From positions 18,105 to 82,104 of the forward strand of contig JAUIEF010000001.1 in assembly GCA_030428785.1 (NCBI GenBank): a stretch of DNA of 64,000 nucleotides, written 5' to 3'. The translations under genes were made by a program, and so were the position numbers. Positions 4,725 to 60,904 of the stretch are shown here, one piece after another. Every line of letters begins with the position of its first letter. The stretch's first letter is position 1. The stretch is from a bacterium. GTDB lineage: Bacteria; Planctomycetota; B15-G4. The notes beneath the pieces are model-generated. The model searched no databases. It was not told where the DNA came from and saw nothing but the letters and a program-made list of their open reading frames with translations.

Positions 4725-4836
4725 CTGCGGCGGCTCCGCCGGGAGCGGCCCACGGCGACCGACGCCGAGATCGAGGCCGCCGTCGTCGCGTGGCTACGCA
4801 CCCGGCGCGGTCGCCCCACGGCGTCGCCGTGCTCGG
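4725..4836 (+). pseudogene. Degraded fragment of a second copy of the 464..715 gene
   Basis: The plus frame reads LRRLRRERPTATDAEIEAAVVAWLRTR, against VRQRLRRERPSATEDEIEAAVVAWLRTR in copy 1. It has no start codon, lacks the 5' half, carries a one-codon deletion, and its last 31 bp are inverted relative to copy 1. Confidence 0.6.
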
Positions 4837-47423: not shown

Positions 47424-48578
47424 ATGACCGCCACGCCCCCCGCCCTGCGCCGCGCGCTCCCGGTCGCGCTCCTCGCGCTGGCCGCCGCCGCGCCGCCCGT
47501 CTTCCTCCGCCACGACCGCGACGAGGCCCGGTCGCTCGAACGCGCCCGCCCGCTCGCGGCCACGGTCCGCATCGGGTCGATCGGCACGGGCACGCTCGTC
47601 GCGCCGCGCTGGGTGCTCACGGCAGCGCACGTCGTCGACGGCCTGTGGCCCGGCACGGGGACGGTCTTCGTCGAGGACCGCCCGGTCGCCGTGCTCTCCG
47701 TGCACCGGCACCCCGAGGGGGACAGCCCGATCCCCGGGCAGCCGCCGGAGGTCGACCTCGCGCTCGTGCGCCTGGCCGAGGCGGTCGACGTCCCGCCCGC
47801 GCCGCTCGCCGCGACGGACGTCCGGCCGGGCGACGCCGTGGTCGTCGCGGGCTACGGCGACTTCGCGCTCGCGGGCACGGGCGACGTCCGGCCGCCCGAC
47901 GGACGGCGGCGCGCCGCGACGAACACGGTGGACGAGGTCGGCGAGCTGCGCTTCGTCATGCACCTCGACCGCGACGGCACGGAGCTCGAGGGCGTGAGCG
48001 CGCCGGGCGACTCCGGCGGGCCCGTCTACGTCGAGACGGACGACGGCCCCGCGCTCGCCGGCGTGAGCTCCGGCGGCTTCGGCGCGTGGGGCGCGTACGG
48101 CATGGGCGACCTCGCCGTGCGCGTGCGCGTGTTCGCGCCGTGGATCCGCGAGACGACCGCGCGCGTCGACGCGGGCGAGGTCCCGATCCCGGAGTGGACG
48201 ACGACGGACGCGCCGCCCGCGACGCCCGCCGGCCGCACGCTCACCGCCTTCGTCGACGCGCTCTCCGCCGTCGACCCGTCCCGGCTCGTCGCCTTCGCCG
48301 AGGAACGGCTCGCGCCGCGCGCGACGCGCGGGCTGCCGGCGGACGAGTGGGCGCGCGAGACGGCGCTCTTCGGCGTGCAGGGCGTGCCGCTGCGCGTCGT
48401 GCGCTGCGCCGCGTCGGCGGAGGAGCTCGTCGCGCTCCTGTCCGTGGACGAGGGCGCCGACTGGCTGCACCTCCGCGTCGCGCTCGGCGACGACGGACGC
48501 GCGACGACGCTCGTGCTCTCGCCGGGCGCGCCGCCGGTCGACGCGGACGAGGACGCGGCGCCCGACGACGGACGCTGA
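47424..48578 (+). CDS. Secreted trypsin-like (S1) serine protease with a C-terminal domain of unknown function
   Basis: In the frame of track ORF 45342..48578. ATG 47424 is preceded by GAGGAG. Triad context LTAAHVV, DLALVRL, GDSGGPV. Confidence 0.88.
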   Translation: MTATPPALRRALPVALLALAAAAPPVFLRHDRDEARSLERARPLAATVRIGSIGTGTLVAPRWVLTAAHVVDGLWPGTGTVFVEDRPVAVLSVHRHPEGDSPIPGQPPEVDLALVRLAEAVDVPPAPLAATDVRPGDAVVVAGYGDFALAGTGDVRPPDGRRRAATNTVDEVGELRFVMHLDRDGTELEGVSAPGDSGGPVYVETDDGPALAGVSSGGFGAWGAYGMGDLAVRVRVFAPWIRETTARVDAGEVPIPEWTTTDAPPATPAGRTLTAFVDALSAVDPSRLVAFAEERLAPRATRGLPADEWARETALFGVQGVPLRVVRCAASAEELVALLSVDEGADWLHLRVALGDDGRATTLVLSPGAPPVDADEDAAPDDGR

Positions 48579-48676
48579 CGTCGGACCGGGACGTCGCGCC
48601 GACCGCCGCCGCGGCGTCGTGCGCGGTCGGACGTTCCCCCGTCAGCGCGCCGCGGGGTCCACGACGAGGTCGCCCG

Positions 48677-49372
48677 TCACGCCTCGTCGAGCATCCGCCG
48701 CGCCCAGCCCTGCTCGCGGAGCCGCGCGCGCAGGCGCTGCCAGCGCTTGACGACCGCCGCCTCGCCGAGGTCGAGCCGGCGCGCCGCCTCCGCGCAGGTG
48801 AGCCCCTCGAGGCCGCAGTGCACGAGGAGCTGCCGGTCCTCGTCGGCCAGCTCGCCGACGCGCTCCACGAACGCGCCGACCGCCTCGTCGCGACCGAGCC
48901 GCCGCGAGAGCGACGTCACGTCGTCGGGCACGTTCGCGAGCGCGAAGAGCCGCGTCGTCGGCCCGCCCTCCCCCGCCGCCCACGGCGAGCGCCGCAGCTT
49001 GCGGAAGCCCTCGAGGAGCACGTTCTTCGCGATGGTGAAGAGCCACGCGCGGAAACTGCGCGTCGCCGGGTCGAAGCGCGGGAAGGCAGTCACCGCGCGC
49101 ACCCATACTTCCTGCACGAGGTCGGCCGGGTCGACGTGCATGCGCATGGAGCGTCGGATGCGGAGCTGCGCCCAGGCGTGGAGCGCCGGCGCGACCCGCT
49201 CGTAGAGCGCGGCGAACTGCGCGGCGTCCCCGCCCTGCGCGCCCGCGGCGAGCCGCTCGGTGGGCGCGTCGAGGGGCGGCACCGGCTCCGCTCCGGACGG
49301 CGACTCCGGACCGGAGGCGGACGGCCCCCCGCCGGCGGGGAGCGGCTCGTCGCTGGACGGTCGGTCGACCAT
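48677..49372 (-). CDS. ECF-type RNA polymerase sigma-70 family factor (no adjacent anti-sigma gene)
   Basis: Last 231 codons of track ORF 48677..51385, from ATG 49372. Sigma-2 region DLVQEVWVRAVTAFPRFDPATRSFRAWLFTIAKNV. Sigma-4 region LEGLTCAEAARRLDLGEAAVVKRWQRLRARL. Confidence 0.9.
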   Translation of the reverse strand: MVDRPSSDEPLPAGGGPSASGPESPSGAEPVPPLDAPTERLAAGAQGGDAAQFAALYERVAPALHAWAQLRIRRSMRMHVDPADLVQEVWVRAVTAFPRFDPATRSFRAWLFTIAKNVLLEGFRKLRRSPWAAGEGGPTTRLFALANVPDDVTSLSRRLGRDEAVGAFVERVGELADEDRQLLVHCGLEGLTCAEAARRLDLGEAAVVKRWQRLRARLREQGWARRMLDEA

Positions 49373-49502
49373 GCTGCTCCCGCGCTCTCGGACCTCGGCC
49401 GACGCGCGACGCCCCCCGCGCCGCGACCGTTCGACGCCCCGCAGCGTCCGCCCCGTCCGCGAGACGGTCAAGCCCGGCGCACCGCCCCGGCGCCGCGACC
49501 GG

Positions 49503-49537
49503 GATTTTCCCGTCCACCGGACGGCCGTTCCGGTCAC
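49503..49537 (+). promoter_or_regulatory. Conserved promoter-like element P1 upstream of the kinase-CHAT operon (candidate ECF target promoter)
   Basis: GATTTTCCCGTCCACCGGACGGCCGTTCCGGTCAC. It is 29/35 identical, with no gaps, to 55229-55263. It ends 63 nt before GTG 49601. Confidence 0.6.
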
Positions 49538-49600
49538 CACCCCCGCGACGGCAGGCACCGCGTATCCTGTCGGACGCCGAGGCCAGGAGAGGGCCCCCCC

Positions 49601-51646
49601 GTGGACACGGAACAGCGCGACGCGCTCGTCTTCGACTTCGTCGACCACCTGCTCGACGACGTGGAGTCGGGGGAGATCCGGCCGCTCCACGAGTACCTGC
49701 GCCGCTTCCCCGGCTGCGAGGAGGACGTGGCGCGCGAGTACTTCGCGATGCTCAAGGTCCCGGAGGACGAGGCGGACGAGGAGCTGCGCGTCGGGCCCTA
49801 CCGGCTGCTGCGGCGGCTCGGGCGCGGCGGGCAGGGCGTCGTGTGGCTCGCGGAGGACGCGCGCATCGACCGGCGGGTCGCGCTCAAGATGCTCTCGACA
49901 CCGCTCGGCGGCGTGCCCGAGGCGAAACGCGAGCGGCTGCGGCGCGAGGCGGAGCTCGTGAGCCGGCTCGAGCACCCGGACCTGTGCGCGGTGTACGACG
50001 CGGACCTCACGGGCGAGGTCCCGTACGTCGCGATGCGGCTCGTCGAGGGACGGACGCTCGCGGCGGTGCTCGCGGAGGCGCGGTCGGGAGCGGCTCCCGG
50101 AGTCGACCCGACGGAAGGCGGGCCCGCCGGCATCGACGCGCGCGCGACGCTCCCGGTCCGGCCGTCGACGCCGGAGGAGGTCGCGGTGCTCTGCGCGTGG
50201 TTCGAGCAGGCCGCGCGCGCGCTCCACGCGGCGCACGAGGCGGGCGTCGTGCACCGCGACGTCAAGCCGGGCAACCTCATGGTCACGCCCGAGGGGCGGC
50301 CGGTCGTGCTCGACTTCGGGCTCGCGCGCACGCTCGCGCACGACGACGCGACGCTCACGGCGACGGGCGAGGTCTTCGGCACGCTCGCGTACGTCGCGCC
50401 GGAGCGGCTCGGTCGCGGCGCGGGCCGCGCGCCCGATCGGCGCGTCGACGTCTACGCGCTGGGCGTCACGCTCCACGAGGCGCTCACGCTGCGCTGCCCG
50501 TACGCCGCGGACACGCCGGAGGAGCTGCTCGAGGTCGTGCTGCGCGGCGAGGCGCCGTCGACGCGGCGGGACGACCCGTCGCTGCCGCGCGACCTCGACG
50601 CCGTGTGTCTCACCGCGATGGCGCCCGAGCCGTCGCGCCGCTACGCCACGGCGGAGGCCTTCGCCGAGGACCTCGCCGCCGTGCGCGAGGGACGCCCCGT
50701 CGCGGCGCGTCCGCGCTCCGCCTCGACGCGTCTGCTGCGGCGCGCCTCGCGCCACCCGTGGACGGCCGGCGTCGCCGCGGCGCTCGTGCTCGTCACGGCG
50801 GCGGCCGTCGCGCTCGGCGAGGGCTGGCGCGACGAGGCCGCGGCGCACGAGCGCTCGCACGAGGACCACGTCCTCGCGCACGCCGCCTTCCTGCGCCTGC
50901 GCGACGCGCACCGCGAGGCGCGCGTGCCGGACCCCGCCGACGAGGCGGTCGTCGCGCGCTTCATCCCGCCCGACGCGACGCTCGAGCGCACGCTCATCCT
51001 CGGCTCGCCGCTCTCGCGCGACGCGGCCGAGCTCTTCGTGCGCTACGCGGCCGACGCGACGCGCGGCACCGACGACGCCGTCGAGGCCCGCGCGCCGCGC
51101 GGCCGGATCGTCGATGCGACGCCGACCTTCGTGCTCGCGGGCGCTGCGTCCGACACGCCGCGCGCGCTCGCGCTGCGCATCGAGCAGCCCGGCACGGGCG
51201 TCCCGCCGCGCGTCCGTCGGATCGAGTGGCCGGCCGGCGCGGACAGCGCGTCGTGGACGGCGGAGGACCCGCTCGCCGCGGGGCACGGGCGCTGGACCGT
51301 CTTCGCGATCGGACCGGACGACATGGTCCCCGACGACGCGACGCCGCTCGCGTCCGCGGTGTTCGAGCGGGTCGACGCCGCGCACGTCGACGCGCTGCTC
51401 GCGGACGTGGAGCCCACGGGCGACCCGACCCTCGACGCGGAGCTCCGCGCGCTCGCGCTGCTCCGCGACGGCCTCGGCGCCCCCGCGCGCGACCTGCTCG
51501 CCGACGCGCCGCGCGTCGACGACACGCCCGCGCGCGCGCGCCGCCTCCTGCTCGAGGCCTGGGCCGCCGGCCTGCTCGGCGAGCGCTCGCGCGTCGCGAC
51601 GCTCCGCGCGGACTGGCTCGCGCTCCGCGGAGCCGACGGCGGGTGA
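49601..51646 (+). CDS. Membrane-spanning Ser/Thr protein kinase with an extracytoplasmic C-terminal domain
   Basis: In the frame of track ORF 47645..51646. GTG 49601 is preceded by AGGAGAG. GRGGQGVVW, VALKM, VHRDVKPGN, DFGLAR, YVAPE. TM helix WTAGVAAALVLVTAAAVAL, then ~270 aa of unrecognised sequence. Confidence 0.9.
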   Translation: MDTEQRDALVFDFVDHLLDDVESGEIRPLHEYLRRFPGCEEDVAREYFAMLKVPEDEADEELRVGPYRLLRRLGRGGQGVVWLAEDARIDRRVALKMLSTPLGGVPEAKRERLRREAELVSRLEHPDLCAVYDADLTGEVPYVAMRLVEGRTLAAVLAEARSGAAPGVDPTEGGPAGIDARATLPVRPSTPEEVAVLCAWFEQAARALHAAHEAGVVHRDVKPGNLMVTPEGRPVVLDFGLARTLAHDDATLTATGEVFGTLAYVAPERLGRGAGRAPDRRVDVYALGVTLHEALTLRCPYAADTPEELLEVVLRGEAPSTRRDDPSLPRDLDAVCLTAMAPEPSRRYATAEAFAEDLAAVREGRPVAARPRSASTRLLRRASRHPWTAGVAAALVLVTAAAVALGEGWRDEAAAHERSHEDHVLAHAAFLRLRDAHREARVPDPADEAVVARFIPPDATLERTLILGSPLSRDAAELFVRYAADATRGTDDAVEARAPRGRIVDATPTFVLAGAASDTPRALALRIEQPGTGVPPRVRRIEWPAGADSASWTAEDPLAAGHGRWTVFAIGPDDMVPDDATPLASAVFERVDAAHVDALLADVEPTGDPTLDAELRALALLRDGLGAPARDLLADAPRVDDTPARARRLLLEAWAAGLLGERSRVATLRADWLALRGADGG

Positions 51647-54600
51647 GGCCTGCCGCGTTCGTGCTCCTCGCGCTGCTCGCCGCCGGCGCGCCGGCCCAGG
51701 ACACCGACGGCGCCCTCGCCCGCGCGACCGCGCTCCAGGACCGCGCGCTCGCGCTCGCCGAGTCGGGCCGACCGGGCGACGCCGCCGACGCCTTCCTCGA
51801 GGCGGCGCCGCTCTTCGGCGAGGCTGGCCGCGACGAGGACCGCGCCAAGTGCCTCCACAACGCGGGCGCGCTCTACACGGACGCCGGCCGTCACGAGGAG
51901 TCCGTCGACGCCTTCGCGCGCGCGCAGACGTGGTGCGCCCGCGTGCGGAAGGCGTCGTGGGCCGCGAGCTCCGTGTACGGCCGGGCGCTCGCGCTCGCCG
52001 CGCTCGACCGCGAGGGCGAGGCCGTCGAGGCCTTCGCGATCGCCGTCGCGCTCTTCGAGCAGCTGGGCGACGACGGGCAGCTCGCGATCGCCACGCACGA
52101 CCTCGGCGCGTCGCTCGCGAACCTGCGGCGGTTCGACGAGTCCGCAGAGACCTTCCTGCTCGCGGAGCGACGCACGCTCGCGATCGGCGACCTCGCGGGC
52201 GCCGCGATGTCCGCCGAGTCGGCCGGCACGGTGCTGCGCTCCGCGGAGCGTCACGCCGAGTCGGCCGAGGCGCTCGACCGCGCGGTCGCGCGCCGCCTCC
52301 CCGACGACGGGCGGCCCGTCGGCGGCCCGGGCACGGTCGGCGGGCTGCTCCGCGAGCGCGGCACGACGCTCCTCATGCTCAACCGCTGGGACGACGCGCT
52401 CGCCGACTTCGAGGCGGCGGCGCCGATGCTCGAGGCGGCGGGCGACGCGTCGGGCCTCGCGTGGCTGCACTGGCACCGCGGCCAGACGCTGCGCACGCTC
52501 GGCCGCTACGAGGAGGCGGTCGCCGCCTTCGACGCGTCGGAGCGGCTCGCCGCGGGCCGCGACCCGGAGCTCCTCGCGAACCTGCTCCTGGGCCGCGCCG
52601 ACGTGCTCGTCTACCGCGGCCGTCTCTCGGAGTCGCTCGAGGTGCTCGAGGAGGCGTCGGCGCTCGTCGACCTGCTCGCCGGACCGCCCGGCTCGCGTCC
52701 GCGCACCGCGGTCCCGCACGGCCTGCTCCAGCTCCGCGGCTCGGTCGCGACGCGGCGCGGCGAGGTGCTGCGCAACCTCGGCCACTTCGGCGACGCGCTC
52801 GCCGAGCTCGCCGCGGCCGAGGAGCACCACCGCGCGTCGGGCAAGCGCGCGCCGCTCGCCGCGGCGATCCTCGACCGGGCGGAGCTGCTCGCCGAGCTCG
52901 GACGGCAGGAGGAGGCGCTCGCCGGCTTCGACGAGGCCGGCCGGCTCTTCGCGGAGCTGGGCGACGCCGAGTGGGGCGCGCACGTCGAGATCGGTCGCGC
53001 GACGGCGCTGCGGCTCGCCGGCGAGCCGCGCCTCGCGCTCGACGCGCTGCGCCGCGCGCGTCCCGTCGTCGAGGGCCTCGGCAACGCGCGGCAGGTCGCG
53101 CACATGGACTTCGAGCGCGTCATCCTGCTGCGGACGCTCGGGCGCACGGGTCACGCGGAGGAGCTGCTCGAGGAGATCGAGGAGGGCTTCGTCGCGTACG
53201 GCGGGCGCGTCGCGGAGGCGCGCGCGGCGCTCGAGCACGCGGCGCTCCACCACCTCGCCGGGCGCGACGAGGACGCGCTCGCGGAGGCGGAGCGCGCGGA
53301 CCTCCTGTGGGAGGCGGAGGGCCACCTCCAGCAGCGCGTGCGGAGCGCGGCGATGCGCGGCGACCTGCTCGCCGGGCTCGGGCGCGACGACGAGGCGCTC
53401 GACGCGTACGACGTCGCGGTCGACGGGCTCGAGGCGCTGCTCGTCGGGCGGACCGCCGGGCTCGGCGCGGAGAGCGTGACCGGCCTGCGCGCGGCCTTCG
53501 CGGAGATCGTGCCGCCGTACCTCGCGCTCGCGGCGGCGCGCGCGGCGGACGCCGACGTCGCGCGGGCGTGGCGCGTCGTCGAGGTGTTCCAGGGGCTCGG
53601 CGCGGCGCAGCTCGTCGCGGAGCGCGGCCGCCTGCGCGACGACGCGCTGCCGCCGGACGTCTCGCGGACGCTGCGCGACGCGCGGCGCGCGCTCAGCGAG
53701 GCGGCGGACGCGGTCGTCGGGGACGCCGCCGGCGACGACGACGCCGGGCGCGCGGAGCTCGCCGAGCGGCGTCGGGAGCTCGCGCGCGCGGAGGACGACG
53801 CGCGGCTCGTCGCGCGCGCGGCGGTCGTGCCGGAGGTCGCGTCGCTCGCGGAGGTCGCGGCGGCGCTCGGGAGCGGCGAGACGCTCGTGCAGTACGCGGC
53901 GCTCGGCGCGCGGGTGCACGCGCTCGTCGTGTCCGCCGACGGTGCGCGGCTCGTCCCGATCGGTCCGTCCGAGGCGGTGGACGCCGCCGTGGAGCGCGTG
54001 CTCGACCGGCTCGACCCGGGGCGACGTCGACCGGCGCCGCTGCCCGCGGAGCTCGCCGCGGACCTGCGCGCGCTCGGCCGCCTCGTGCTCGACCCGGTGC
54101 TCGCGGGGCGCGCGCCGCCCGCGCGGCTCGTCGTCGTGCCGTCCGGACTGCTGTGCCGCGTGCCGTTCGGGGCGCTGCTCACGGCGGACGTCGCGCCCGG
54201 CGCGGAGCAGGCCGCCTGGCCCTTCCTCGCGGCGGCCGTCGACACGACCTGCGCGCACTCGGGCACGACGTGGATCGCGATGCGACGCCGCGCCGATGCG
54301 CCGCGCGACGCCGACGGCCCGGCCTACGTCGCGTTCGCGGACCCCGAGGACGCGAGCGTGCGCTCGCGCGCCGCGACGCTCGCGGCCGGCGCGCCGTCGA
54401 CGCACGACGGCGCCCCCGCGGGCGCGCCCGGTCCGGACGCCCCGCCCGCCCCCGACCGCGGACCGCGCGGGCTCGCGTCGCTGCCGCGCACGATCGACGA
54501 GGTCGCGGCCGTCGCGCGGCTCTTCGCGGGCGACGGGGACGCCGCCGCGCTCGACGCGCTCGAGGAGGCGCTGCTCGTCGGCGGCGCGGTCCCCGGCGTC

Positions 54601-55119
54601 GTGAGCGGCGACGACTTCCTGCTCCTGCTGCGCGGCCGCGCGACCGAGGCGCAGCTCCGTCGTCGCGCGACGGTGCGCGGCGCGCGCGTGCTCCACCTCG
54701 CGTGCCACGGCGCCGCCGACCCGGTGACGCCCGGCCTGTCGCGCCTCGAGCTCGGACGCGCGGGCACGGAGGACGGCCGGCTCTTCACCGACGAGCTCGC
54801 GACGCTCGACCTCTCGTGCGAGCTCCTCGTGCTCTCGGCCTGCGAGACGAACGCCGGGCCGCTCCGCGCGCTCGAGGGCGTCGACGGACTCACGCGCGCC
54901 GGGCTCGCGGCGGGCGCGCGCGCCGTGCTCTCGACGCTCTGGCGCGTGCCCGACGACGGCGCGCGGCGGCTCGTGACGTCCTTCCACGAGGCGTGGCTCG
55001 GCGAGGGGCTCCCGCGCGCGCGCGCCCTCGGCGAGGCCCGGCGCCGGGCGATCCGCGAGGGCCTGCCCGTCCGGGCGTGGGCGGCCTTCCAGCTCTGGGA
55101 CGGCGCCCCGGCGGACTGA
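51643..55119 (+). CDS. Secreted TPR repeat plus CHAT (caspase-like) domain protein
   Basis: In the frame of track ORF 49843..55119. GTG 51643 overlaps the kinase stop (GTGA). Signal (M)RPAAFVLLALLAAGAPAQD. ~900 aa of TPR-like repeats. CHAT dyad context VLHLACHGA (His codon 54706-54708) and LVLSACETN (Cys codon 54841-54843). Confidence 0.9.
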   Translation: MRPAAFVLLALLAAGAPAQDTDGALARATALQDRALALAESGRPGDAADAFLEAAPLFGEAGRDEDRAKCLHNAGALYTDAGRHEESVDAFARAQTWCARVRKASWAASSVYGRALALAALDREGEAVEAFAIAVALFEQLGDDGQLAIATHDLGASLANLRRFDESAETFLLAERRTLAIGDLAGAAMSAESAGTVLRSAERHAESAEALDRAVARRLPDDGRPVGGPGTVGGLLRERGTTLLMLNRWDDALADFEAAAPMLEAAGDASGLAWLHWHRGQTLRTLGRYEEAVAAFDASERLAAGRDPELLANLLLGRADVLVYRGRLSESLEVLEEASALVDLLAGPPGSRPRTAVPHGLLQLRGSVATRRGEVLRNLGHFGDALAELAAAEEHHRASGKRAPLAAAILDRAELLAELGRQEEALAGFDEAGRLFAELGDAEWGAHVEIGRATALRLAGEPRLALDALRRARPVVEGLGNARQVAHMDFERVILLRTLGRTGHAEELLEEIEEGFVAYGGRVAEARAALEHAALHHLAGRDEDALAEAERADLLWEAEGHLQQRVRSAAMRGDLLAGLGRDDEALDAYDVAVDGLEALLVGRTAGLGAESVTGLRAAFAEIVPPYLALAAARAADADVARAWRVVEVFQGLGAAQLVAERGRLRDDALPPDVSRTLRDARRALSEAADAVVGDAAGDDDAGRAELAERRRELARAEDDARLVARAAVVPEVASLAEVAAALGSGETLVQYAALGARVHALVVSADGARLVPIGPSEAVDAAVERVLDRLDPGRRRPAPLPAELAADLRALGRLVLDPVLAGRAPPARLVVVPSGLLCRVPFGALLTADVAPGAEQAAWPFLAAAVDTTCAHSGTTWIAMRRRADAPRDADGPAYVAFADPEDASVRSRAATLAAGAPSTHDGAPAGAPGPDAPPAPDRGPRGLASLPRTIDEVAAVARLFAGDGDAAALDALEEALLVGGAVPGVVSGDDFLLLLRGRATEAQLRRRATVRGARVLHLACHGAADPVTPGLSRLELGRAGTEDGRLFTDELATLDLSCELLVLSACETNAGPLRALEGVDGLTRAGLAAGARAVLSTLWRVPDDGARRLVTSFHEAWLGEGLPRARALGEARRRAIREGLPVRAWAAFQLWDGAPAD

Positions 55120-55228
55120 GCCCCGGCGCGGCGACACGTCCCCGCGCCCACGCGGCCCGGCGGCGCCCCGGCGGCGCGCGGAACGGCCCCGGAAGGCCCG
55201 CGCACGGCCGCGGATCGCCCCCCCCAAC

Positions 55229-55263
55229 GATTTTCCTGTCCACCGCGCGGGCGCCCCGGTCAC
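55229..55263 (+). promoter_or_regulatory. Conserved promoter-like element P2 upstream of the NHL-LamG gene
   Basis: GATTTTCCTGTCCACCGCGCGGGCGCCCCGGTCAC. Same length and register as P1. It ends 60 nt before ATG 55324. Confidence 0.6.
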
Positions 55264-55323
55264 GGGGGAGATGTCCGACGCGGGCCGCGGGGCCCGCGGA
55301 CAGCACAGAACAGGAGATCGACC

Positions 55324-57108
55324 ATGACCGCCCCCACCACCCTCCGTCGCCTCACGACGACCCTGGCCGCCGCGCTCGTCGCGACGACCGCCGCCACCGC
55401 CCAGCACCACGTCGCCTACCAGGAGCTCACGCCCTTCGGAATCACCCCGCCGCCGGCCTTCGGCGAGGACCTGCTCCTCGACCCGGTCGACGTGGCCGTC
55501 ACCGGCTGGGGCAGCTCCGTCTCGTGGACCTACGTCGCGGACGCGGGCGCCAACCGCGTCCTGCGCTGGGTCATCAACCCGGTCGGCACCGCCGTCGCGC
55601 CCGCCGAGTGGGGCGCCTTCCAGTTCGGCCCGCACGGCGTCGCCGTCAACGACATCCCGAACCACGACAAGAACGAGCGGGTCTACGCGACCGGCGTCGA
55701 CGCCTTCGGCGAGCCCTCGGTCCAGGTGTTCGACCGCTGGGGCAACTGGCAGGCCAGCTTCAAGGGCGCGCTCAACGACCACTTCATCGACCCGCGCGGC
55801 GTCGCCGTCGGCCCCGAGGGCAACGTCTTCGTCGTGGACATGGCGCGCCGCGTCGTCGAGGAATTCGACCCGGTGATCATGGAGATCAGCAGCGACTCGA
55901 TCCCGATCAACACCTACGGCGGCTGCACCGGCATGGTGCCGCTCGACGTGAGCGTCGACCTCATGCGGCGCGTGCACGTCGTGGGCCACGAGTTCTTCCC
56001 GTTCCCGGTCGGCAAGCAGGAGGTCTTCGAGTACGGCGTGAGCTGCCCGCCGGTGACCGAGATGAGCGGTCCGGTCCTCGCCGGCGTCGACGCGCGGCCG
56101 CTCGACCGCAACCGCATCGCGCGGCAGGACGGGACCGTGGCGACGGCCCTCTGGACCGACACGGTGCTGCCGTTCTGGGGCTTCACGAGCGGCGGCATCC
56201 AGACGATCCCGACCGACACGGCGGCGGCCGAGGACCTCGGCGGGCTCGAGGAGCAGCGCACGTGGCGCATCCAGGCGACGACCGTCGGCGGCGACCGGCA
56301 GCAGCGCTGCGACCTGCGCACCTACGTGACGGACCGCGCGGACGGCGAGGTGCACGTGCTCGAGAGCAAGGAGCTCTCCGTGCCGCGGCCCGCGGGCATC
56401 GTCGCCTGGTGGGACCTCGACGAGACGAGCGGCGGCGCGGCCGACGACACGATGGACACGGCGAACGGCGCGTGGAGCGGGTCGCCGCAGCCGGTCGACG
56501 GCGTCGTGCGGCGCGCGATGTCCTTCGACGGCGGGACGTCCGGCGTGTCGGTCTCCGACACGGACCTCGACGTGGGGCTCTCCGACTTCAGCGTCGAGGC
56601 GTGGATCCGTCCGGCGACGCAGGCCGGCACGGTGACGATCCTCGACGCCCGTGACGCGACGGGCCTCGGCTGGCACGTCGTGCTCGTCGACGGGCAGCTC
56701 GGCCTCGGCATCGACGACGGCGCGGACAGCGACCTCACGGTCTCGGCCGTGCCGCTGGACGACGGCCTCTGGCACCACGTCGCGGCGGTCGTCGAGCGCG
56801 GCGTCGGGACGCGGCTCTACGTCGACGGCTCGCTCGTCGCGACGGGCGCCAGCGGCGGCGTCGCCGGCGACCTCACGTCCGGCGCGGCGCTCGAGATCGG
56901 CCGCGAGGGCGCGGCGGGCGCCACGGGTCTGCTCGGCACGCTCGACGAGGTGAGCCTCTACCACGCGGCGCTCACGTCCGGCGAGGTCGGCTCCGTCGAG
57001 AACGCGCGCTGCGCGGGCAAGCACCTGCCCCCGCTCGCGCCCGGCGGCGGCGGCATCTTCGGCACGACGGGCGTCGCCGTGAGCTGGAAGTCCTTCGTGA
57101 AGCTCTAG
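55324..57108 (+). CDS. Secreted NHL-type beta-propeller plus LamG (concanavalin-A-like lectin) domain protein
   Basis: Full track ORF; AGGAGA lies upstream. Signal TLAAALVATTAATAQ. NHL-like blades (PHGVAVN, PRGVAVGPEGNVFVVD). LamG_3-like SFDGGTSGVSV...FSVEAWIRP...GLWHHVAAV...LYVDGSLV...LDEVSLY. Confidence 0.85.
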   Translation: MTAPTTLRRLTTTLAAALVATTAATAQHHVAYQELTPFGITPPPAFGEDLLLDPVDVAVTGWGSSVSWTYVADAGANRVLRWVINPVGTAVAPAEWGAFQFGPHGVAVNDIPNHDKNERVYATGVDAFGEPSVQVFDRWGNWQASFKGALNDHFIDPRGVAVGPEGNVFVVDMARRVVEEFDPVIMEISSDSIPINTYGGCTGMVPLDVSVDLMRRVHVVGHEFFPFPVGKQEVFEYGVSCPPVTEMSGPVLAGVDARPLDRNRIARQDGTVATALWTDTVLPFWGFTSGGIQTIPTDTAAAEDLGGLEEQRTWRIQATTVGGDRQQRCDLRTYVTDRADGEVHVLESKELSVPRPAGIVAWWDLDETSGGAADDTMDTANGAWSGSPQPVDGVVRRAMSFDGGTSGVSVSDTDLDVGLSDFSVEAWIRPATQAGTVTILDARDATGLGWHVVLVDGQLGLGIDDGADSDLTVSAVPLDDGLWHHVAAVVERGVGTRLYVDGSLVATGASGGVAGDLTSGAALEIGREGAAGATGLLGTLDEVSLYHAALTSGEVGSVENARCAGKHLPPLAPGGGGIFGTTGVAVSWKSFVKL

Positions 57109-57155
57109 GGGGCGGTGGTTCCCCCGGCCGCGTGCCCGCGCACGCGGAGACGTCC

Positions 57156-57188
57156 GAGCCCCGTCCGACCATATGTCGGGCGGGGCTC
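57156..57188. terminator. Stem-loop between convergent genes (candidate bidirectional terminator)
   Basis: GAGCCCCGTCCGAC-catat-GTCGGGCGGGGCTC (14-bp stem with one G-U pair), located between the stops at 57108 and 57252. No U-tract. Confidence 0.5.
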
Positions 57189-57251
57189 TCTGCGTCCGGT
57201 GCGACGCCGCGCCGCGCGTCCGGGTGCGCGGCCGACCGGGCGCGACCCGCG

Positions 57252-60200
57252 TCAGCGCGCCGCGAGGTCCACGACGAGATCGAGCGACACGTCCTCCGTC
57301 GGACCGGCCACGAACGTCCGGCGTGCGACGGCGTCGTCCTCGAGGCCGTCGCGATAGCGGTAGTGACGCCCCGGCACGACGAGCAGCTCGTAGCGCCCCT
57401 CGCCCAGCAGGATCAGGGAGTACGCGCCGTCGGCGACGGTGCGCGCTCGCGGATCGCCGTCGTCGTCGACGCGGGCCAGCAGCAGCGTGACCTGCTCGCC
57501 GAACACGTCGCCCGCCGGTGTGCGCAGCGTCCCCGCGACGGTCCCGCACCGCTCGAGTCGCAGGACGTGCTCCGCGGGTCCCGCGTCGACGGGCGTCGGC
57601 GCGGACGACGGCAGCCAGCCGGACGCCGACGCGGAGAGCCCGGCGCCCGCCGGCGCGCCGTCGGGGAACTCGAACCGACCCTCGTCGTCCGTGCGGCCGG
57701 AGACGCGGGCCTCGCCGGTGCGGTCGTGCATCTGGACGCCGGCGTGCGCGAGCGGCTCGCCGGTCCACGCGTCGACGACGCGCCCCGCGACGGGCCGCCC
57801 GCCGAACGCGAGGTCGACGGTCGTCGTGACACCGGGCTCGACCTCGACGACCGTCGCCTCCGAGAGACCGCGCGCGCTCGCCGCGACGCTCGCCGGCCCG
57901 GACTCCGCGGGGTCGAGCACGACCTCGAACTCCGCGACTCCGCGGGAGTCGGCCCGGACCTGCTGCCCCCGGTTCTTCCCGCCGAGGGTCGCGTGGACCT
58001 GAACGTACGAGCCGGGCTGCGTGCCCGTCACGACGCCCGTGAGCCGCGCACGCGGCGGCTGGACGAGCGTCACGGCGAGGGTCTCGCCCGTGCCGACGTG
58101 CACGACGCGCTCGTCGGTCGGCGCGTCGGCGTCGCCGAGCCGCACGCGCCACGCGCCGGGGCCGGGCAGCGTGAAGCGGGCCGTCCCGCGGCGCGTGTTC
58201 CGGGAGGCTTGCGGCTGGTGGAACGGGTGCGCGGGCGGCGCCGCGTCACCGGCGGGCTCGAGGTGGACGGTGCCGCTCTCCGGCGCGCCGGCGCGGTCCG
58301 TCACCGAGACCTCGAGCACGGGCGGCGCCGCGAGACGGATGACCGGCAGCTCGCGCATCTCCTCGTCCTCGAGCTCCAGTTCGGCGACGTGCACGCTCGT
58401 GTCCTTCGCCGAGACGGTGAGCGTCCAGGCGCCCGCGTCGAGGCCGGGCAGCTCGTACGTCCCGTCGTCGCGGGGCCGCGTCGTGCGGCGCCCGCTCCAG
58501 GCGTTCCCTCCGGCCGAGGCCACCTGCACCGAGCAGTGCTCGACCGAGACGCCCGGCGGCACCTCGACGCGCCCGCTCAGCACGGCGCGCGGCGCGAGCA
58601 CGAGCGTGCGCTCCACGGGGTCGGAGCCCCACGGCGCGCCCTCGATCCGCTCCGTCCAGCGGCTCGTGCCCCGGGAGAGCGTGAGCTCGCGCTCGGCGGG
58701 GCAGAGGTCGAGCGCGAGCGTGCCGGATGCGGGGTCCTCGGGCGTCGCGCGGTGCGTCCGCAGGCCGTCGACGACGCGCCACGAGACGTGCTCGACGGCG
58801 ACGGGCGTGCCGTCCGGATGCACGAAGCGGAGCACGGCGGGCGTGAGCCGGCGCAGGCGCAGCTCGACATCGTCGCGGCCCGGCGCCACGCCGGTCGCGC
58901 GCGCGGGCTCGTGACCCGGCGCGTCGGCGTAGACGCCGTAGGACGTGCGCTCGAGTCCGACGATCCGGAAGCGCCCGTCGGCGTCGGTGCGGTCGGTGAG
59001 GAAGCGCGCGGCGCGCGCCGTCTCGTCGGTGGCGGTCACGAAGGACGTCGCCGTGATGCGGTCGCCCTCGACGACGGAGAGCAGCTCGTCGTGCACCGCC
59101 TCCGGACCGAGGTCGGGGAACTCCATGACGGAGAGGCGCACGACGGCGTGCGCGAGCGGGAGGCCGTCCTCGTCGAGGACGCGCCCGGCGATCGCGCCGC
59201 GCTCGCGGACGACGACATCGGGGAGCGTGACGACGTCGCCGGCGACGGGCAGCGCCGACGCGTCGCCGGACCGTGGGACGAACCCGCTCGCGACGGGCGC
59301 GACGACGTCCGGATCGAGCGCGCGGACGATCATCGGCGGGACACGTTCCGGGTGCACGAGGAGCCGGGCGTCGGCGAGCGGCCCGGGCGGGAGGCCGACG
59401 AGACGCCACGCACCGGCGGCGTCGGTCCGCGTGCGGAACGGCTCGTACGCGACGGTCCACCAGGAGTAGGTCACGGCGATCCCGCCCCGCGAACCGCCGC
59501 ACGTGAAGCCGCGCGCCTGCAGCTCGCAGCGTTGCCGGCCGGGCCACACGCCCTCGACCGCGACGGGGACGTCGGCGAGCCCGCCCCCCGACGCATCGAC
59601 GACGCGCCCGACGAGCGTCACGCCGCGGTCCAGGGGCCAGTCGCCGAGCACGTGGGGCTCGACGTCGTCGGGATCGGACGGCTGCGCGCCGTCGTCCGCG
59701 GACGGCCAGATCTCGTCGAGGTCCCGGTTGCACTCGTGGATGCTCGGGACGCGACCCGGCGCGCGCGCGACGAGCGTGCCGCCGAGCGAGCGTGCCCGGG
59801 TCATCGAGGAGTTCGTGCGGCGGGCCGGTCCGGGGAGCGCGACGGTGAGCTCGAAGCGCCCGTCGGCGTCGACGGTCGTCGAGGGCATGTCGGCGAGCGC
59901 CGCCATCCCGGCGAGCTCGCGCAGGTCGCCGGCGAGCACGCGGCGGGACACGTCGCCGAGGCCGAGCAGCGTCGCGGTCTCCTTGTCCGGAACGAAGGAG
60001 ACGCGCCCTTCGGAGAGCGGCGCGCCGGCCTCGTCGACGAGGCGACCCGTGAACCGCGCGACGAGGTCGGGGACGTCCGACGCGGCGACGTCGTCCGGCG
60101 CGTCGGCGGTCGTCGGCGAGGCGTCGACGGCGATCGGCACCGGCGCGCCGACGTCGGGGCGTGGGAGCGCGTCCGGCGCCTCGACGACGACGCCGCGCGC

Positions 60201-60347
60201 GCTCGCGGCGGTGATCCGCGCGCCGGCGTCCGCAGCGGGCTCGCCCGCCACGAGCCACCACGCGGCGCCGAGCCCGACCAGCAGCCCGAGCGCTCCGAGG
60301 ACCGGCAGCCCGCGCGCCGCGCCCGTCTCACCGCCCCGCCTCGTCAT
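57252..60347 (-). CDS. Large membrane-anchored protein with multiple carboxypeptidase-regulatory-like (CarboxypepD_reg) domains
   Basis: Last 1031 codons of track ORF 57252..62147, from ATG 60347. N-terminal TM helix LPVLGALGLLVGLGAAWWLVAG. Repeated GR[LV]VD..G.P[LV]... and TD..GRF motifs. Confidence 0.85.
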   Translation of the reverse strand: MTRRGGETGAARGLPVLGALGLLVGLGAAWWLVAGEPAADAGARITAASARGVVVEAPDALPRPDVGAPVPIAVDASPTTADAPDDVAASDVPDLVARFTGRLVDEAGAPLSEGRVSFVPDKETATLLGLGDVSRRVLAGDLRELAGMAALADMPSTTVDADGRFELTVALPGPARRTNSSMTRARSLGGTLVARAPGRVPSIHECNRDLDEIWPSADDGAQPSDPDDVEPHVLGDWPLDRGVTLVGRVVDASGGGLADVPVAVEGVWPGRQRCELQARGFTCGGSRGGIAVTYSWWTVAYEPFRTRTDAAGAWRLVGLPPGPLADARLLVHPERVPPMIVRALDPDVVAPVASGFVPRSGDASALPVAGDVVTLPDVVVRERGAIAGRVLDEDGLPLAHAVVRLSVMEFPDLGPEAVHDELLSVVEGDRITATSFVTATDETARAARFLTDRTDADGRFRIVGLERTSYGVYADAPGHEPARATGVAPGRDDVELRLRRLTPAVLRFVHPDGTPVAVEHVSWRVVDGLRTHRATPEDPASGTLALDLCPAERELTLSRGTSRWTERIEGAPWGSDPVERTLVLAPRAVLSGRVEVPPGVSVEHCSVQVASAGGNAWSGRRTTRPRDDGTYELPGLDAGAWTLTVSAKDTSVHVAELELEDEEMRELPVIRLAAPPVLEVSVTDRAGAPESGTVHLEPAGDAAPPAHPFHQPQASRNTRRGTARFTLPGPGAWRVRLGDADAPTDERVVHVGTGETLAVTLVQPPRARLTGVVTGTQPGSYVQVHATLGGKNRGQQVRADSRGVAEFEVVLDPAESGPASVAASARGLSEATVVEVEPGVTTTVDLAFGGRPVAGRVVDAWTGEPLAHAGVQMHDRTGEARVSGRTDDEGRFEFPDGAPAGAGLSASASGWLPSSAPTPVDAGPAEHVLRLERCGTVAGTLRTPAGDVFGEQVTLLLARVDDDGDPRARTVADGAYSLILLGEGRYELLVVPGRHYRYRDGLEDDAVARRTFVAGPTEDVSLDLVVDLAAR

Positions 60348-60418
60348 CGTGGTCCCCGTCTCGTCATGCTCCCCGATCGCCCGCCCGCCGGCCGCCGCAC
60401 GCGCGCGGCCGGACTCCT

Positions 60419-60904
60419 CTAGTCGCCCGCGCCCGCCGGGTGACGCGCGAGGCGCCCGGTGAGCACGTACTCGAGGATCGCGACGACCTGCCCGGGCTCG
60501 CGGGCCACGGCGCAGGCGCCGGCGTCCACCTCCTTGAGCGCGTGGTCGAGCGCCTCGTCGTGCAGCGTGACGTAGGGCGTCCCGCGCGCGGCGGCCTGCC
60601 CGGCGTCGAAGGCGGCGTTCCACTGCTTGTACTTGTCGCCGAAGCGCACGACGACGACGTCGGCGGCGTCGAGCAGCGTGCGCGTCCGGAGGGCATTGAC
60701 GCCCGCGCCCTTGCGGTCCTTCCAGAACGCCTGCGATTCCTCGCCGAGGATCGCGACGCCGCAGTCGTCGCTGCTCGCGTGGTCGGTGACCGGCGCGGTG
60801 AACTCGATCGGCAGCCCGGCCTCGCGCGCGCCGTCCTCGATGCGCTCGCGCCAGTCGGTGTGGATCTCGCCGGAGAGGTACACGGTGAGCGACGGCGCGG
60901 ACAT
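60419..60904 (-). CDS. ytoQ: YtoQ family protein (nucleoside 2-deoxyribosyltransferase-like fold)
   Basis: Last 161 codons of track ORF 60419..61957, from ATG 60904. LTVYLSGEIHTDWRERI...VVVRFGDKYKQWNAAFDAG. Confidence 0.8.
   Translation of the reverse strand: MSAPSLTVYLSGEIHTDWRERIEDGAREAGLPIEFTAPVTDHASSDDCGVAILGEESQAFWKDRKGAGVNALRTRTLLDAADVVVVRFGDKYKQWNAAFDAGQAAARGTPYVTLHDEALDHALKEVDAGACAVAREPGQVVAILEYVLTGRLARHPAGAGD

Follow-up and report, generated by a model that had tools for sequence, protein, structure and literature searches.

A bipartite element repeated beside a kinase-paired ECF sigma factor gene of a planctomycete is a putative ECF-type promoter

Introduction

The closest described systems are the ECF43 pairs EcfP/PknT of Vibrio parahaemolyticus and EcfK/PknS of Xanthomonas citri, in which an extracytoplasmic function (ECF) sigma factor is encoded beside a transmembrane Hanks-type Ser/Thr kinase, no anti-sigma factor is present, and the regulon under the control of the sigma factor is small and serves envelope or secreted functions (PMC13147305, PMC8999054). 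In the ECF43 sigma factors the acidic DAED motif of region 2.2 is missing, and Thr phosphorylation supplies the charge (PMC13147305, PMC8999054). In Planctomycetota, the kinase-associated ECF groups are ECF59, ECF61, ECF62, and ECF217 of the Casas-Pastor 2021 classification (PMC7826278, PMC8999054). Here, we describe a 35-nucleotide (nt) element that occurs twice, as P1 and P2, in a 64-kb stretch of planctomycetal DNA (contig JAUIEF010000001.1, positions 18,105 to 82,104; hereafter the window). P1 precedes a Ser/Thr kinase–CHAT operon and P2 precedes a gene for a secreted LamG-domain protein, and a gene for an ECF sigma factor lies next to them. P1 and P2 are probably two copies of an ECF-type promoter that would be read by the adjacent ECF sigma factor or by a paralogue of the same specificity.

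Like the ECF43 pairs, the window sigma factor has a neighbouring Ser/Thr kinase, encoded divergently as in 80 of 89 loci of its family, and no anti-sigma factor. Unlike the ECF43 sigma factors, it keeps an acidic region 2.2 (VDPADLVQEVW); the pattern D-P-x-D-[LV]-V-Q-E is family-wide, and 20 family members show D..D..QE with little or no variation. As the acidic region 2.2 is intact, activation by the kinase, if there is any, would take a route other than that of ECF43. The window sigma factor shares with the planctomycetal groups its origin in Planctomycetota, a match to PF07638, a neighbouring Ser/Thr kinase, and no co-encoded anti-sigma factor, and it most likely belongs to ECF59/61/62/217. 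Kinase-associated planctomycetal ECF groups were reportedly treated by Jogler in 2012. The locus is an already known type of regulatory wiring. Kinase-linked ECF sigma factors are abundant in Planctomycetota; our literature search turned up neither experiments on them nor, for the ECF59/61/62/217 groups, target promoters in print to compare with TTCCTGTCCAC-N15-GTCAC, and a literature string search for TGTCCAC returned nothing relevant.

Canonical ECF promoters, such as those of sigmaE, sigmaW, and SigR, combine a GGAAC-type −35 box with a CGT-type −10 box, and GTC or CGTC is the usual ECF −10 core. The element described here resembles them in being bipartite, with a rigid spacer of 16–17 nt, a −10 core that is GTC and in some copies CGTC, and a short T/A tract upstream of the −35 box, and in being placed before a sigma-linked operon and a few extra targets. 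It differs from them in its −35 box, which is TGTCCAC and not GGAAC. Unlike in classical sigma factor autoregulation, the motif precedes the partner kinase operon and not the sigma gene.

Results and Discussion

The element is present twice in the window

An earlier, sequence-only reading of the window had placed a 35-nt element twice on the plus strand, with 29/35 identity and no indel, at the same distance from the starts of two genes. Coordinates, strand, and identity were all borne out (Table 1), and so were the distances: 63 nt from the end of P1 to the kinase GTG (49601) and 60 nt from the end of P2 to the LamG ATG (55324), both start codons being backed by orthologues whose N-termini align with them. 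The variable stretch between the boxes had been given as 11 nt and is actually 10 nt. A search of the window with the original N11 pattern gave zero matches, and the pattern with N10 gave exactly two sites in the 64 kb on both strands, P1 and P2, even at three mismatches. The T-rich block is rare, as had been noted: on its plus strand the window has six occurrences of TTTT and two of AAAA, and P1 and P2 account for two of the TTTT runs. The conserved blocks did not stand as drawn. The two boxes themselves hold, and the true core is TTCCYGTCCAC(C) plus GTCAC. Comparison of orthologues refined this core to TTCC[C/T]GTCCAC(C)-N13-nGTCAC, in which, in promoter terms, a spacer of 17 nt separates the −35 hexamer CTGTCC from a −10 box centred on GTC; GATTTT is variable with indels among relatives, and the CCGG before GTCAC is not conserved. 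The arrangement CTGTCC-N17-GTCAC fits normal sigma70-family spacing.

The window has a GC content of 74%, and 15 direct pairs of 35-mers in it reach at least 29/35 identity, so plain identity is weak evidence. A composition-weighted score, in which matches are weighted by base rarity, was therefore used in place of raw identity. The P1/P2 pair scored 55.1 bits, rank 2 among all window pairs, and none of six block-shuffled windows reached 55 bits. The similarity is thus real and somewhat beyond chance, although sequence statistics alone are insufficient to carry that conclusion, and the comparison with relatives described below is decisive. When a bipartite scoring matrix was relaxed to 12 bits, P1 (25.3 bits), P2 (29.1 bits), and one further weak match were found in the window.

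The boxes, but not the spacer, are conserved in close orthologues

The closest relatives of the sigma factor are encoded in Planctomycetota metagenome-assembled genomes (MAGs). One of them, L002 (the same as L010; CBDFJQ010000002.1, a 5.29-Mb contig), is syntenic for the sigma, kinase, CHAT, and LamG genes, and its sigma factor is 73–77% identical to that of the window. The sequence-only reading had proposed to look for the element upstream of orthologous genes in relatives. Both L002 intergenic regions were found to carry GTCCACC-N13-[T/G]GTCAC with unrelated spacers, and the element is also present upstream of the kinase gene, with a CGTCAC −10 box, in L007 and L008, two short contigs with sigma factors 75–79% identical to that of the window. 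The kinase orthologues of L002, L007, and L008 are 59–73% identical, and in all three the P1 boxes are kept and the spacer is divergent. The fixed distance to the gene was not kept in the orthologues: for the kinase gene it is 63, 86, 146, and 67 nt, and before the LamG gene it is 60, 58, and about 56 nt.

When the region between the sigma and kinase genes was aligned four ways, three footprints emerged: TTGAC[GC]-N17-GA[GC]GCT on the sigma strand, the P1 boxes, and a T[AC]T[CG]CT block 24–28 nt after GTCAC. Across seven sites of the close subfamily the motif reads CTGTCC-N17-GTCAC, with N16–17 in distant sites; GTC is invariant in the close subfamily, CGTC occurs in three of the seven sites, and the −35 box carries CCAC and not AAC.

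The motif is intergenic and strictly oriented in the wider sigma–kinase family

Species-representative genomes were searched with an alignment of 20 sigma homologues, which yielded 80 loci. All but three of these are labelled Planctomycetota, planctomycete, or unclassified bacterial MAGs, the exceptions being a Candidatus Paceibacteria MAG (L035), a Paracoccaceae MAG (L079), and the cultured Saltatorellus ferox Poly30. Several genomes carry more than one sigma–kinase pair. Intergenic calls were made with a three-position GC gene model, which recovers the kinase, CHAT, and LamG genes.

A single-box scan with the P2 −35 box TTCCTGTCCAC, allowing at most one mismatch, was run on 85 sigma-anchored loci (1.35 Mb). 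It returned 33 matches, compared with about 14 in shuffles. Sixteen of the matches are intergenic, although intergenic sequence makes up about 15% of the DNA, and all 16 lie on the strand of the kinase direction, with none on the opposite strand. The bipartite matrix at 16 bits or more returned 35 matches, compared with 4–15 in shuffles; 23 of these lie between genes, every one of them on the kinase strand, with no intergenic match on the opposite strand, and 22 of the 23 are also on the kinase side of the sigma gene (the exception is L045, position 20028). Seven matrix sites lay outside the training set. Among 62 non-redundant hold-out metagenome loci, the three strongest matches (24–28 bits) were all intergenic and on the kinase strand.

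The distant pairs (40–57% identity) have a short intergenic region with housekeeping-type TAGAAT/TAGCAT −10 elements, quite unlike P1 and P2, immediately before both genes and no GTCCAC motif. Because the motif is absent before the kinase in these pairs, the P1-type site and the feedback arm that it would provide are limited to the close subfamily. Among loci L011–L089 (e.g., L034, L042, and L049), the divergent intergenic regions are very short; a TAGAAT/TAGGAT element stands a few bases from the kinase start and, on the other strand, TAGCAT/TAGAAT precedes the sigma start, which suggests that both genes may undergo leaderless or near-leaderless housekeeping transcription in distant members. 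Where the motif is found at distant loci, its second box decays to GTCCC, GCCAC, or CTCAC while the first box stays TGTCCA. The most conserved peptides of the sigma factors include the region-4.2 helix [AT]V[AI]KRWQ[RST]L, a conservation that parallels that of the invariant TGTCCA core.

The motif precedes recurring families of secreted proteins

The genes after the motif, which start 40–240 nt downstream of it, mostly encode secreted proteins of recurring families. These are proteins of about 594 amino acids (aa) that start with ‘...FSIDWKSPTVG’, proteins with ‘WNRKISDVRIVHPPGTPPGT’, LamG proteins, and secreted proteins of about 75–80 aa with the pattern DCNxNG(I/V)xDxVDIAFGxSSDxxxNGVPDEC and no Pfam match. 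The small DCNxNG proteins are encoded directly after the motif in four unrelated genomes (L035, 2031–2258; L060, 6099–6341; L072, 2369–2599; L107, site 6295). An exception to the secreted products is a HutD-like gene with no evident signal peptide, which follows the motif in L040, L131, and probably L037.

At these three sites a perfect hairpin, GAGCCGCGCCGAGG...CCTCGGCGCGGCTC, is conserved downstream of the motif (L037, ~3480; L040, ~6090; L131, ~6070). In L040 and L131 the HutD-like gene (M.RE.LHR.PADSRRTPW.NGRG) comes after the hairpin; the open reading frame downstream in L037 was not identified as HutD-like. The hairpin could serve in attenuation or bind a protein.

A LamG paralogue elsewhere in the L002 genome (L171, 9902–9937) carries TTTGTGTCCACC-N13-GGCCAC about 70 nt before its ATG. 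It lies 1.7 Mb from the sigma locus and has no sigma gene within 10 kb, suggesting a regulon that extends beyond the neighbourhood of the sigma gene rather than a local duplication. The closest LamG relative, L174, has the same −10 box and the downstream GGGGGAG at a contig edge, where the −10 part alone is present. Before the LamG orthologues of three other lineages (L170, L172, and L175; Table 1) stands another motif of fixed spacing, (TTCCT)TGGCAGG-N17-GCGGAG, whose flanks resemble those of P2. This hints that the same LamG target family may have been rewired to a sigma factor of different specificity in those lineages. A sigma54 reading of the TGGCAGG motif was rejected, the −12 register being inconsistent.

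P1 and P2 as probable ECF-type promoters, and the alternatives

The geometry of the element is that of an ECF-type promoter, with two boxes separated by a fixed spacer of 16–18 nt of free sequence, in one orientation and upstream of genes. The proposal of the sequence-only reading that P1 and P2 are ECF-type promoters gains support from the conservation of the boxes but not the spacer in orthologues and from the intergenic, strictly oriented placement of the family motif. That the adjacent ECF sigma factor would be the reader is likewise made more plausible by the position of the motif, which at paralogous sigma–kinase loci lies to the side of the kinase gene, and a co-regulated unit of the kinase–CHAT operon and the LamG gene is consistent with the conservation of both sites in the syntenic L002. 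The comparative tests made here were all in line with this reading.

Several observations weigh against this assignment. Many ECF groups have a GGAAC/AAC signature that is missing from this −35 box. The −10 box is CGTC in some copies only, being GGTC in the window and TGTC in one L002 site, and distant loci show GCCAC or CTCAC as the −10 box. In most of the distant sigma–kinase pairs, a TAGAAT-type promoter serves the kinase gene instead. The training sites of the matrix came from the very loci that were scanned, so the enrichment is partly circular, a circularity that the single-box and hold-out tests lessen but do not remove. In addition, the motif is common to paralogous sigma–kinase pairs, and the sigma factor that reads it could therefore be one of these paralogues, with its gene elsewhere.

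This last point leads to the first alternative, that P1 and P2 are ECF-type promoters read mainly by one or more paralogous kinase-paired ECF sigma factors encoded elsewhere, with cross-talk. The motif family adjoins sigma–kinase pairs that are only 45–57% identical to the window pair, several genomes hold multiple paralogues, the distal LamG paralogue of L171 carries the motif with no sigma gene nearby, and TGGCAGG-N17-GCGGAG at LamG orthologues of other lineages indicates that targets can be rewired. We nevertheless regard a reader of this kind as unlikely. The placement of 22 of the 23 intergenic sites on the kinase side of the local pair, and of all 23 on the kinase strand, argues against it. 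The sigma factor, the kinase, both promoters, and both targets are co-conserved as one block between the window and L002, which favours the local sigma factor over a paralogue.

A quite improbable alternative is that the boxes are not a core promoter but a transcription factor site whose two GTC(C)AC half-sites form a direct repeat with a spacing of about 20 bp. The boxes do share GTCCAC and GTCAC in this manner, about two helical turns apart, and the −10-like TATCCT upstream of the kinase gene, which is conserved at a variable distance, could be the real promoter. However, no DNA-binding protein besides the sigma factor is conserved in the neighbourhood, and no other promoter-like element was found at P2 or its orthologues. 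The degeneration of the second box while the first stays TGTCCA is unlike two equivalent half-sites, and the strict single orientation 40–240 nt before start codons suits a promoter better than a factor site.

It is highly improbable that the similarity arose by chance or from base composition, or that the element is a small dispersed repeat or a transcribed RNA that lacks promoter function; this reading is largely refuted by the orthologue comparison. For all that 15 window pairs reach the same identity and a strong hairpin lies in the putative 5′-untranslated region (5′-UTR) behind P2, the pair holds composition-weighted rank 2 with no shuffle reaching its score, the motif is kept at orthologous sites with divergent spacers, its two copies in 64 kb both point toward genes, and neither an Rfam match nor a conserved structure across the boxes was found. 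The sequence-only reading had named random placement and orientation as the mark of a dispersed repeat, and within the window none was seen. P1 and P2 also do not fit a mobile miniature element, as the two copies are gene-proximal and co-oriented and the orthologous copies keep the boxes only.

Other candidate readings of the two sites were rejected. P1 and P2 lack the GG-N10-GC of sigma54 promoters. An RNA element was set aside on the grounds that there were no Rfam matches at P1 or P2 up to E = 1, that consensus folding of the kinase 5′-UTR gave only four pairs, and that neither P2 nor the orthologues share the CCGTCC/GGACGG palindrome of P1, with no conserved structure spanning the boxes. 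Single-sequence folds of the kinase 5′-UTR were mixed, those of L002 and L008 folding well and the window copy not. No match to a sigma70 consensus promoter (TTGACA-N16–18-TATAAT-like) was found in 48500–57500, and no intrinsic terminator was found at P1 or P2.

Genes and features of the locus

The genes and sites discussed are listed in Table 1. The product of the sigma gene is an ECF (group 4) sigma factor by Pfam and TIGR models (Sigma70_r2, 4.8e-15, 55.6 bits; Sigma70_r4_2, 2.8e-5, 24.1 bits; Sigma70_ECF PF07638, 1.9e-10, 41.4 bits with a cut-off of 21.1; TIGR02937 sigma70-ECF, 69.8 bits with a cut-off of 42.9), and it is the sole sigma homologue in the window. An alternative frame for this gene, 48642–49517, was rejected for want of a Pfam match. 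The kinase begins with an N-terminal helix; the kinase domain comes next and is followed by a single transmembrane segment, recognized in the translated sequence, and an extracytoplasmic C-terminal domain. The GTG of the CHAT gene overlaps the kinase stop codon (GTGA), indicating that the two genes form an operon, and the same 4-nt overlap is present in L002. The N-terminus of the TPR–CHAT protein resembles a signal peptide. The LamG protein has an N-terminal beta-propeller/NHL-like region, with a faint NHL match in one orthologue. The gene downstream of it, encoding a CarboxypepD_reg protein, is convergent, so the LamG gene is monocistronic and the CarboxypepD_reg gene bounds the P2 transcription unit. 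The plus-strand open reading frame 57132–60422 is spurious, as it has no family match and loses to this minus-strand gene.

Table 1. Coordinates of the element, the genes, and other sites discussed (positions in the window unless another locus is named)
Feature	Coordinates	Strand	Details
P1, putative ECF-type promoter of the kinase–CHAT operon	49503–49537	+	Sequence GATTTTCCCGTCCACCGGACGGCCGTTCCGGTCAC
P1, T-tract	49505–49508	+	
P1, −35 box	49507–49517	+	TTCCCGTCCAC; hexamer CCGTCC at 49510–49515; followed by a 17-nt spacer
P1, −10 box	49533–49537	+	GTCAC
P2, putative ECF-type promoter of the LamG gene	55229–55263	+	Sequence GATTTTCCTGTCCACCGCGCGGGCGCCCCGGTCAC
P2, T-tract	55231–55234	+	
P2, −35 box	55233–55243	+	TTCCTGTCCAC; hexamer CTGTCC at 55236–55241; followed by a 17-nt spacer
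P2, −10 box	55259–55263	+	GTCAC
Putative sigma70-like promoter of the sigma gene	49443–49471	−	−35 TTGACC (49471..49466), 17 nt, −10 GACGCT (49448..49443)
Conserved block between P1 and the kinase start	49553–49569	+	−10-like hexamer TATCCT at 49563–49568; four-orthologue alignment
ECF sigma factor, 231 aa	48677–49372	−	Candidate reader of P1 and P2
Receptor-type Ser/Thr protein kinase, 681 aa	49601–51646	+	Pkinase 1e-32
TPR–CHAT protein, ~1158 aa	51643–55119	+	CHAT 3.7e-45; TPR_12 1.8e-23
Secreted LamG-domain protein, 594 aa	55324–57108	+	Laminin_G_3 1.9e-25; signal peptide
CarboxypepD_reg protein, 3–4 domains	57252–60347	−	CarboxypepD_reg 1.3e-40; GC-frame gene caller
(TTCCT)TGGCAGG-N17-GCGGAG site, L170	9872–9918		
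(TTCCT)TGGCAGG-N17-GCGGAG site, L172	1597–1638		
(TTCCT)TGGCAGG-N17-GCGGAG site, L175	1358–1403		

Putative promoter of the sigma gene and possible feedback

The sigma gene of the window is not preceded by the P1/P2 motif. Its putative sigma70-like promoter is conserved as TTGACG-N17-GAGGCT in L002, L007, and L008, and it occupies the position of the TAGCAT/TAGAAT −10 elements of distant family members. The same region, read on the plus strand (49446–49471), has two mismatches to the P1 core and was considered as a second ECF site upstream of P1. This was rated less likely and dropped because the minus-strand TTGAC[GC]-N17-GA[GC]GCT is conserved in four orthologues and is placed like the TAGCAT/TAGAAT elements of distant members. 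The reverse complement of P1, which contains GGAAC, was rejected as an autoregulatory promoter of the sigma gene, since GGAAC is absent from P2 and from all orthologues. In one metagenome locus, a weak match of 16.9 bits (L167, 282–312) lies directly upstream of the sigma gene itself; it could reflect autoregulation in that lineage or chance.

The sequence-only reading had also proposed a feedback loop. Such a loop would act through sigma-dependent transcription of the kinase gene: as the sigma gene has a putative sigma70-like promoter and not the motif, any feedback would run only through the kinase.

The block between P1 and the kinase start has the consensus CA(G/C)C..T(A/C)T(C/G)CTG and lies 24–28 nt after the GTCAC box of P1 in the four orthologues. 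It may be either a basal housekeeping −10 element (TATCCT) or a small 5′-UTR hairpin (loop plus stem).

Proposed mechanism and significance

On the ECF-type promoter reading, the sigma gene would be transcribed from its own sigma70-like promoter, and the divergently encoded membrane Ser/Thr kinase would probably switch the sigma factor on, by analogy with EcfP/PknT and EcfK/PknS. No conserved anti-sigma gene was found, the genes after the sigma gene in L002 and L003 encoding unrelated membrane proteins with no anti-sigma domain. RNA polymerase with the adjacent ECF sigma factor, or with a paralogue of the same specificity, would then read P1 and P2. Transcription is predicted to start a few bases downstream of the −10 boxes, near 49543 and 55269; the resulting 5′-UTRs, about 55 nt long, would carry AGGAG ribosome-binding sites. 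From P1, active sigma factor would raise transcription of the kinase–TPR–CHAT operon, a positive feedback on the sensor and not on the sigma factor, with a possible basal −10 element (TATCCT) behind P1. P2 would be the sole promoter of the LamG gene, so that active sigma factor would turn on the secreted LamG protein.

A Thr about five residues before region 2.1 (residues ~38–45 of the window sigma factor, PTERLAAGA) is conserved in 16 of 20 family members. Speculatively, it might be the phospho-acceptor for the partner kinase.

A broader proposal, which we put forward as tentative and somewhat less likely than not, is that TTCCTGTCCA(C/G)-N14/15-GTC(A/C)C is the cognate promoter of a Planctomycetota-wide family of kinase-paired ECF sigma factors, in which the intact region 2.2 would imply a different kinase switch, the secreted output would be conserved, and the kinase–CHAT feedback arm would have been added in the window subfamily. 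If this is true, the output of the family consists of uncharacterised secreted proteins, namely LamG/beta-propeller proteins, ~594-aa ‘SIDWK’ proteins, and ~75-aa Cys-containing ‘DCNxNG...PDEC’ peptides. The locus offers a testable wiring, from sensor kinase to sigma factor to two promoters, one for the kinase–CHAT protease feedback and one for the secreted LamG protein. The motif can be used for regulon prediction in related genomes and gives an entry point to an uncharacterised sigma–kinase family. If the dependence on the kinase is true, this would point to a second mechanism of sigma factor control by Ser/Thr kinases; otherwise, the result is a routine promoter and regulon annotation.

Other sequence features

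A strong GC hairpin, CGCGGGCC-GCGG-GGCCCGCG, is present at 55279–55298 in the putative LamG 5′-UTR, with a fold z-score of −5 and no obvious conservation in L002. The top composition-weighted repeat pair of the window (56.4 bits) is a block of about 33 nt, CTCGTCGTGGACC[C/T]CGCGGCGCGCTGACG in the minus-strand reading, at 48632–48672 and 57242–57282. The copy in the 3′ flank of the sigma gene is 32/33 identical to the one formed by the last nine codons and stop codon of the CarboxypepD_reg gene. L003 encodes a sigma–CarboxypepD_reg fusion. The repeat may be a recombination relic or the remnant of a lost C-terminal extension. An identical 30-nt block, GCGGTCGCCCCACGGCGTCGCCGTGCTCGG, occurs at 517–546 and 4807–4836 of the window, 4.3 kb apart (33/35 in the 35-mer scan).

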